Origin: a virus
Lineage: Duplodnaviria > Heunggongvirae > Uroviricota > Caudoviricetes
Length of the DNA: 48,953 nt
Reading direction: 5' to 3' (one strand)
IMG/VR virus record: IMGVR_UViG_2579778802_000015
Under the pieces are notes generated by a model. That model had not been told where the DNA came from. It saw nothing but the letters and a program-made list of their open reading frames with translations, and searched no databases. The position numbers and the translations under genes were made by a program. Positions 11,522 through 12,201 of the stretch are shown here, piece by piece (positions within the stretch are counted from its first letter, which is position 1; the number at the start of each line of letters is the position of its first letter).

Positions 11522-11803
11522 TCATGACTGTGCTGCAAAGCTCAGCGCGTCTTCCAGCGCCGCAAACGGATCCACCTCCGGCTTATCCTCATCCTCGCCC
11601 CAGCAGAGCATGGCGTCCTTCAGTGCAACATTCATCCCCTGTGCCCCAAAAACCGCTTTCACGATCTGTGCATTACGGATATCCCCGCGCTCATCACCCA
11701 GCGGGGATACCCTGTCGAACTCCATCCACATCATCGCCTCGCTCACACTCAGGCTGTGCCGCAGTTCGGATAAGGTGCGCCCCAGACGGAGCGCAAGTCG
11801 CAT
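11522..11803 (-). CDS. T: T portion of the G-T tail assembly chaperone, expressed as a G-T fusion by programmed -1 frameshift
   Basis: ORF in the -1 frame relative to G, open across the G stop; slippery site AGAAAAAAG at about 11830-11838. Confidence 0.8.
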   Translation of the reverse strand: MRLALRLGRTLSELRHSLSVSEAMMWMEFDRVSPLGDERGDIRNAQIVKAVFGAQGMNVALKDAMLCWGEDEDKPEVDPFAALEDALSFAAQS

Positions 11804-11826
11804 CAGAAAGCGAATTTCCGGGCGGG

Positions 11827-12201
11827 CTACTTTTTTCTGGCCGACTCTGCATCAGCGATCAGTTCCAGTGCCTGACGCAGCAACCGGGCATGTACCGGAC
11901 CATAGACGGCCAGCACCTGCTCACGGTCGTCCGGAGCGAACACCCGCTGCAGATCCGTATCACACAGGACATCGCAGAACAGCGTCACATCCGCTTCCAG
12001 GTTACGGCGGGTTTTCGCCACCACCGACAGGGTATCGTCATCCTCTCCATCACCATTGAGCACTTCCTGCCACAGATACCAGGCCTCTGCCGAAGGCTCC
12101 CGCAGCACCACGCTGACATTACCCCATTCCGGCACCTTCACCGTTTTATGACGAAACCCTGACAGTCTGGCCAGCGCCAGTGTTTTCAGATCTTTTGCCA
12201 T
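11827..12201 (-). CDS. G: Tail assembly chaperone G
   Basis: 124 aa, acidic; ends ...ADAESARKK with a slippery A_AAA_AAG heptamer at its 3' end. Confidence 0.9.
   Translation of the reverse strand: MAKDLKTLALARLSGFRHKTVKVPEWGNVSVVLREPSAEAWYLWQEVLNGDGEDDDTLSVVAKTRRNLEADVTLFCDVLCDTDLQRVFAPDDREQVLAVYGPVHARLLRQALELIADAESARKK

Follow-up and report, generated by a model that had tools for sequence, protein, structure and literature searches.

Probable programmed -1 ribosomal frameshifting at the G/G-T tail assembly chaperone locus of a lambda-like Escherichia coli prophage

Background

How is the T segment of a tail assembly chaperone locus translated when it overlaps the end of the G gene in the -1 frame, at a run of adenines? 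The question is raised by the virus record IMGVR_UViG_2579778802_000015, a 48,953-nucleotide (nt) sequence referred to here as the window; all positions are window coordinates and (-) denotes the minus strand. A first-pass annotation made from the sequence alone had proposed that a -1 shift on the heptamer A_AAA_AAG, at the end of G, produces a G-T fusion chaperone. The anatomy of the locus, the protein families, the comparative data and a published assay on an identical sequence all agree with this proposal, and with a probability of about 0.93 a lambda-like E. coli prophage with an HK97-type tail here encodes its G/G-T pair of tail assembly chaperones, which it makes by programmed -1 ribosomal frameshifting. 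The evidence examined directly comprises the geometry and phase of the open reading frames (ORFs), the protein families, the conservation of the site and of the -1 peptide, and the identity to a cassette with 7 % frameshifting; the shift itself is probably ribosomal, by tandem slippage, and the roles of G and G-T in assembly may be drawn by analogy.

The lambda G/G-T system is said to have been described by Levin, Hendrix & Casjens in 1993 and by Xu, Hendrix & Duda in 2004, 2013 and 2014, and Xu et al. reportedly found in 2004 that the G/G-T tail assembly chaperone frameshift is conserved among long-tailed phages. As in lambda, the frequency of frameshifting would fix the ratio of two chaperones needed for correct tail length. 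The practical value of recognising the system lies in annotation, the module being present in about a quarter of the complete E. coli genomes, often in several copies, and in Stx-converting phages among others.

Anatomy of the locus

Both G and T are encoded on the minus strand, as seen from the ORF listing and translation. The first-pass annotation was right that G ends in AGA AAA AAG TAG within 11800-11840, but had written the reverse complement without marking it as such. The G gene, a tail assembly chaperone of 124 amino acids (aa) in frame 0 by ORF translation, Pfam and PHROG, occupies 12201..11827(-), and its protein ends in ARKK followed by the stop. The slippery heptamer A_AAA_AAG lies at 11836..11830(-), where sequence, phase and conservation identify it; its phase relative to G is exactly X_XXY_YYZ (the last A of AGA, then AAA, then AAG), and the TAG stop of G at 11829..11827(-) abuts it with zero spacer. 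The -1 frame is open across this point, as had been noted from the sequence; it is free of stops from 11851 until a TGA at 11524..11522 and overlaps G by 22 nt, within which A_AAA_AAG is the sole in-phase X_XXY_YYZ heptamer.

After the shift, the T segment (11830..11522(-), GTA GCC CGC ... TGA by translation, with Pfam and PHROG matches) comprises 102 codons, the reading GUA GCC CGC ... corresponding to VARPEIRFLMRLALRLGRT.... The G-T fusion coding region thus extends over 12201..11522(-) and yields 226 aa by one -1 shift, in keeping with its translation, a colinear profile match and published lengths. The fusion is predicted to read ...ESARKK-VARPEIRFLM... across the junction, with a trans-frame peptide ...SARKKVARPEIR and a junction peptide ...SARKKVARPEIRF.... 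Two ORFs on the plus strand cover the site, 11392..12162 and 11610..12059; both were set aside as antisense shadows of the well-supported genes on the minus strand, with no family-library search of them.

According to the proposed mechanism, most ribosomes would translate G and terminate at TAG, while in a minority the peptidyl-tRNA on AAA and the tRNA-Lys on AAG would slip one base back, re-pair with AAA AAA and continue in the -1 frame through GUA GCC CGC... to complete the 226-aa G-T. By analogy with lambda, for which the G/GT mechanism is reviewed by Atkins et al. 2016 (PMC5009743), many copies of G and few of G-T would coat the tape measure protein, with the T domain recruiting the major tail protein; a fixed low shift frequency would thus set the G:G-T ratio.

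The protein families agree with this arrangement. G matches Pfam PF06222 Phage_TAC_1 over its whole length (residues 1-124 of 124, E 2.7e-61, 205.4 bits against a cut-off of 25) and PHROG 344, tail assembly chaperone (E 2.9e-46). The -1 segment matches Pfam PF06223 Phage_tail_T over fusion residues 152-222 (E 6.7e-18, 65.3 bits against a cut-off of 25.9) and also PHROG 337. PHROG 14766 ('tail protein', 224 positions) is matched colinearly, G covering 1-122 and T 125-224, and is a profile of fused G-T proteins that is spanned across the slip site. G matched TAC_1 only and gave no match to Pfam PF06894 Phage_TAC_2, the family of lambda gpG. Of the pair named G and T in the first-pass annotation, T alone thus shares its Pfam family with lambda, and the window joins an HK97-type G to a lambda-type T.

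Occurrence of the heptamer in the window

Counted over both strands, the window contains 28 copies of the string AAAAAAG, compared with 8.9 +/- 3.1 expected from dinucleotide-preserving shuffles; none of 100 shuffles reached 28, an over-representation of about three-fold. The majority of the occurrences lie outside the structural module, at 20-46 kb. With 28 copies in the window, rarity of the heptamer was rejected as evidence, and for this reason the context was scored instead: each occurrence was assessed for how far the required phase is open upstream, how near the frame-0 stop lies and how long the -1 frame stays open. Only one of the 28, at 11836(-), combines 129 open upstream codons, an immediate frame-0 stop and about 100 open -1 codons.

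Published catalogues and measured frameshifting

The feature is already known: it has been catalogued as part of the conserved G/G-T frameshift system and tested by experiment. Antonov et al. 2013 (NAR 41:6514, PMC3711429) joined GST to MBP through predicted frameshift cassettes and measured in E. coli how much fusion product was formed. One of these cassettes (fs-gene 15618692) is identical, by exact string match, to the 75 nt at 11856..11782(-) and belongs to the 'Phage_TAC' cluster of 41 genes similar to an HK97 protein; it gave 7 +/- 0.79 % frameshifting (PMC3711429 Suppl. Table S2), and a second cassette of the same cluster, of the Fraca type (...GCG_GGA_AAG_CCG_TAA...), gave 6 +/- 0.61 % (PMC3711429). 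A reporter assay on a short stretch around the site, which the first-pass annotation had put forward as a check, had thus been published in 2013 on the identical 75 nt. Fixed, low-percentage production of the fusion may be expected from this published value for the identical cassette.

Sharma et al. 2014 (NAR 42:7210, PMC4066793) list a prophage cluster A_AAA_AAG_25 of 53 genes, represented by ECs1801, a tail assembly chaperone, and flagged [true]; the shift is placed at residue 124, the normal product has 124 aa and the frameshift product 226 aa, and the cluster corresponds to GeneTack cluster #10 (PMC4066793). The products predicted for the window have the same lengths. ECs1801 is not mentioned in the main text of the papers searched. 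The same gene pair, ECs_1801/ECs_1802, lies between the major tail and tape measure genes of Sakai prophage Sp9 and is 97.9 % identical in nucleotide sequence to the G-T region of the window: of 680 nt, 14 are substituted, none of them within -47..+61 of the heptamer; the heptamer followed by TAG, the 124- and 226-aa products and the tested 75-nt cassette are all identical in the two.

Conservation and distribution

For the G-T region, 92 phage records show 95-99.4 % identity, most of them from Stx1a-, Stx2a- and Stx2c-converting phages of E. coli O157 and O26. The region was found in 1242 of 5426 complete E. coli genomes at >=80 % coverage (1246 with any match), and the module occupies 2909 places in the complete genomes, with up to 7 copies per genome.

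When G-T was aligned across eleven members of the family, with protein identities of 99 % to 33 %, the shift-prone site fell at one common position in all eleven. The A-site tetramer A_AAG stands at this position in 10 of the 11, KS9 having A_AAA, and the P-site codon varies. The site is A_AAA_AAG followed by TAG in the window, Lys8385Vzw and phi467, A_AAA_AAG in phi1026b, A_AAA_AAA in KS9, G_GGA_AAG followed by TAG in SW-37, G_GGA_AAG in Fraca, G_GAA_AAG in HK446, LAU1 and ENT39118, and A_GCA_AAG followed by TAA in KPNMC05; the heptamer-then-stop layout of the window thus recurs in phi467, SW-37 and KPNMC05. In the last of these, the Klebsiella phage vB_VIPKPNMC05 (L009), the -1 frame opens just 7 nt before the G stop at A_GCA_AAG TAA, and the site is a minimal version of the signal, consisting of the A_AAG tetramer and an abutting stop only.

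Scans of viral contigs with three single-protein queries gave 240 loci, which form three tight clades and not a continuum. A_AAA_AAG with TAG is found at 79 of 80 loci of the window-type clade, G_GAA_AAG 15 nt before TAA at all 80 of the HK446-type clade and G_GGA_AAG 3 nt before TAA at all 80 of the Fraca-type clade. The -1 frame is open across the shift-prone site, at the same position, in 239 of the 240 loci and in 10 of 10 diverse relatives with sequence through T. The sole exception among the 80 close relatives of the window, L075 (IMGVR_UViG_2537562191_000024), has an A-run one base shorter (AGAAAAAGTAG), and its G runs to 168 aa in the wrong frame; the prophage copy is either defective or affected by a sequencing error in the homopolymer.

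Among 48 distinct close-relative sequences, 20 of 30 variable sites upstream fall at third positions of the G frame and 25 of 44 downstream at third positions of the -1 frame. A block of 115 nt (11769-11883(-), -47..+61 around the heptamer) has no variable position in these 48 sequences, whereas 74 of 680 positions vary elsewhere; the chance of such an invariant gap is about 0.002 under uniform placement, the mosaic 3' end being excluded. Sharma et al. 2014 (PMC4066793) found synonymous variability not significantly reduced for the A_AAA_AAG_25 cluster, and the block is a weak, unexplained observation that is not taken as evidence of a stimulator.

Stimulatory signals and efficiency

In the assay of Sharma et al. 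2014 (PMC4066793), which covered all 64 heptamers, A_AAA_AAG shifted at 0.29 % without a stimulator, 4.3 % with the IS911 stimulators and 39 % with the IS3 pseudoknot, and G_GGA_AAG at 0.28, 3.8 and 43 %, respectively. The two heptamers are functionally interchangeable in E. coli; therefore sister clades can swap them freely, and the difference from the lambda site is unremarkable.

An upstream Shine-Dalgarno (SD)-like stimulator was rejected: the 20 nt upstream, GCTGATGCAGAGTCGGCCAG, contain no GGAG, GAGG or AGGA, and SD is scored 'N' for the A_AAA_AAG_25 cluster in Table S4 of Sharma et al. 2014 (PMC4066793). A downstream RNA stimulator was likewise rejected as unsupported. Table S8 of the same work predicts for this cluster a structure of 130 nt, set off by a 5-nt spacer and closed by a stem of 7 bp (PMC4066793), which the 140-nt fold of the window reproduces; however, the folds of +1..+90 and +1..+140 are no better than those of shuffled sequences (z -0.88 and -1.13), and no conserved structure emerged from eight diverse family members, the consensus being -4 kcal/mol with a covariation term of -0.05. 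The sole shared hairpin, GCGCUCC...GGGGCGC, starts about 34 nt downstream and lies within the conserved coding motif ALRxGRT.

Alternative routes to the T segment

T is still shown in public annotation as a gene of its own. RefSeq gives, in a 99.4 % identical copy, two separate coding sequences (CDSs): one is named 'phage tail assembly chaperone', and the other, 'phage tail assembly protein T', has 282 nt and begins with the ATG at 11803..11801(-) (NC_013361.1 1597420-1597701), and T is annotated as 210 nt in Sakai (NC_002695.2 ECs_1802) and Lys8385Vzw (MT225100.1 Lys8385Vzw_13); these three records carry no ribosomal-slippage join of G and T, and the GenBank records of HK446, HK544 and KS9 have a joined 'programmed frameshift' CDS. 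If T were started independently, from the ATG at 11803 or from the later ATG of Sakai and Lys8385Vzw, the heptamer at the end of G would be incidental. Such a reading, which has RefSeq/PGAP and several GenBank records behind it and an in-frame ATG available 27 nt past the G stop, is nevertheless highly improbable: no SD-like motif is present 5-12 nt upstream of the ATG at 11803, the annotated starts disagree (282 against 210 nt), and in each of the ten relatives reaching through T the -1 reading extends without a stop back to the heptamer, sometimes with a margin of just 7 nt. The peptide encoded from the slip site to the first ATG is itself conserved as K-V/A-x-x-P-G-x-x-F-L-M, with KK-VARPEIRFLM in the window, KK-VALPGMRFLM in phi467, GK-VSTPGVKFLM in HK446 and SK-VKMPGMQFLM in KPNMC05, and the Met of F-L-M is missing in KS9 and lambda. 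The family moreover has fused-protein profiles and joined CDSs, and the identical cassette gave a frameshift fusion product at 7 %. Because the -1 peptide is conserved, this Met is absent in KS9 and lambda and an SD-like sequence is lacking, the ATG at 11803 is more likely an internal Met of the conserved motif than a start, and the independent T gene with its arbitrary starts should give way in public annotation to a joined G-T CDS.

Two other routes would give the fusion without tandem slippage of two tRNAs during translocation. A 'shifty stop', in which, once translocation has proceeded normally, the tRNA-Lys on AAG in the P site faces a slowly decoded UAG-C and slips alone to AAA, would yield the same product, and the stop does abut the heptamer here and in phi467, SW-37 and KPNMC05, the last of which offers no tandem P-site re-pairing and only A_AAG and TAA to work with; the native cassette also shifts about 25 times more than the bare heptamer, measured with another reporter. 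On the other hand, the frameshift persists in clades whose stop lies at a distance of 3, 15 or 30 nt, the lambda site lies 15 nt from its stop, and adjacency of the stop adds little, as the Fraca-type cassette with its stop 3 nt away gives 6 % against 7 % for that of the window; slippage of this kind is accordingly considered unlikely. Transcriptional slippage, in which the A6 run would gain one A from RNA polymerase and some of the mRNAs would carry G-T as one continuous frame, is barely credible as the main route. A-runs do support it, a protein reporter is blind to the route taken (both discussed in PMC3711429) and the phi467 site is a run of A8, but the run here has six A, and productive slippage is described for about 8-9 or more (PMC3711429). 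Sister clades keep G-T with G_GGA_AAG (A3) or G_GAA_AAG (A4), which are unable to support it, and the G_GGA_AAG cassette is nearly as efficient in the same assay. What is constant in the family is A_AAG in a fixed codon phase, which matters to tRNA re-pairing and not to the polymerase; a constant A_AAG with a free P-site codon fits ribosomal slippage by tRNA-Lys rather than transcriptional slippage.

Some points weigh against programmed ribosomal frameshifting as the source of G-T. No direct protein evidence for the fusion was found from this phage, the reporter assay cannot tell ribosomal from transcriptional slippage, and T stands as an independent CDS in RefSeq, Sakai and Lys8385Vzw, inconsistent though its starts are. 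The bare heptamer shifts at 0.29 %, in another reporter, against 7 % for the native cassette, a difference of about 25-fold that implies context effects or differences between the assays; an increase of about 12-fold, to 3.7 %, can come from the 3' context of these motifs (Sharma 2014, PMC4066793). That the UAG-C stop abutting A_AAA_AAG, together with the invariant 115-nt block, acts as an uncharacterised stimulator lifting the shift by this factor appears rather improbable; if it did, the G:G-T ratio in this phage clade would be sensitive to termination efficiency (RF1), a mode of control undescribed for lambda.

Comparison with lambda, HK97-like phages and dnaX

The fetched lambda sequence reads GCG GGA AAG TGT TCG ACG GTG AGC TGA at the corresponding place, so that the lambda site is indeed G_GGA_AAG, given in the first-pass annotation as different from the heptamer of the window; it lies 15 nt before the stop and its products have 140 and 279 aa. 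The window resembles lambda in the gene order (major tail, G, T, tape measure), in the A-site codon AAG, in the low frequency of a shift whose product is the longer one and in having T in PF06223, on which lambda G-T scores 52.6 bits compared with 65.3 for the window. It differs in the heptamer and its position, A_AAA_AAG abutting the stop as against G_GGA_AAG 15 nt before it, in the family of G (TAC_1 here, Phage_TAC_2 in lambda) and in the product lengths (124/226 against 140/279 aa). Direct homology of G to that of lambda was rejected, as BLASTP between the two fusions finds nothing and the Pfam families differ.

With the HK97-like phages HK446, HK544, HK106, HK633 and mEp234, the window shares the family of G (63 % identity), the family of T and an HK97-type tape measure, and their G/G-T pair is annotated in GenBank as a joined 'programmed frameshift' CDS. 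Their site differs: the HK97-like clade (L094-L173, also L006 and L008) reads CGG GAA AAG, that is G_GAA_AAG, in all 80 sampled relatives, 15 nt before TAA, a non-canonical form of X_XXY_YYZ at which the P-site tRNA-Glu would re-pair from GAA to GGA.

The dnaX gene uses A_AAA_AAG (PMC3711429, PMC4344849), identical to the heptamer of the window and with the same shift-prone tRNA-Lys. Two stimulators, an SD-like element upstream and a stem-loop close by on the downstream side, account for its shifting of about 50 %, and the shifted product is the shorter one (PMC3711429), whereas the window has neither an SD-like element nor a significant or conserved downstream structure, shifts at about 7 % and gives a longer product. 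The site is therefore dnaX-like in its heptamer only, and the description 'dnaX-type' in the first-pass annotation does not extend to the stimulators.

Gene neighbourhood

On the minus strand the order is major tail, G, T, tape measure, the overlapping pair being flanked by the other two genes. The major tail protein gene, with a C-terminal immunoglobulin (Ig)-like domain, adjoins G upstream at 12992..12207(-) and is recognised by Pfam tail-tube and Ig matches and by the annotation of relatives; these coordinates are those of the mechanical ORF, and the annotated homologue has 717 nt. Head-tail connector proteins and HK97-gp10-like and gp17 tail completion proteins are encoded further upstream (Pfam). 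The HK97-type tape measure protein gene, of 1080 aa, lies at 11474..8232(-), with matches to Phage_HK97_TLTM (E 1.1e-90), TMP_3 and Tape_meas_lam_C.

The T stop is followed directly by a terminator-like hairpin at 11516..11495(-), 20 nt ahead of the start of the tape measure gene, with a 9-bp stem, GAGAACCGC/GCGGUUUUU, and then a U-run. A simple terminator scanner gave no call for it, and folding of 11530..11475(-) confirmed the hairpin (z -1.75). Rho-independent terminators are annotated at the equivalent position in HK446 and HK544, and the element suggests attenuation between the chaperone and tape measure genes.

The portal locus

Elsewhere in the window, a portal-like ORF of 454 aa (17041..15677(-)) and an ORF of 407 aa (15680..14457(-)) overlap by ATGA; in Sakai Sp9 (ECs_1795) and in PHROG 2271 the two correspond to a single 'portal protein' ORF of 859 aa. 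The split goes with a G5 homopolymer in the window as against G6 in Sakai, the junction lying near 15689-15693; the 407-aa ORF is in the -1 frame of the 454-aa ORF, which ends in ...CTG AAA AAA TGA. In IMG/VR the G5 pattern is found in 31 contigs (27 at the portal locus, all with a stop 8 codons later) and the G6 pattern in 37, and many GenBank records of Stx phages annotate 'portal protein (x2)'. The G5/G6 difference is a recurrent split/fused polymorphism, for which coupling, a second shifty stop and prophage decay are candidates. Inside the 407-aa ORF, 14911-15464 holds 3.4 copies of a 162-nt (54-aa) tandem repeat, 92 % matching, with the unit ...VPRDGRDYDPDVLQKAVNDAVANIPLPADGKSITPDDVRPMLEQMVKEAVSHIP....

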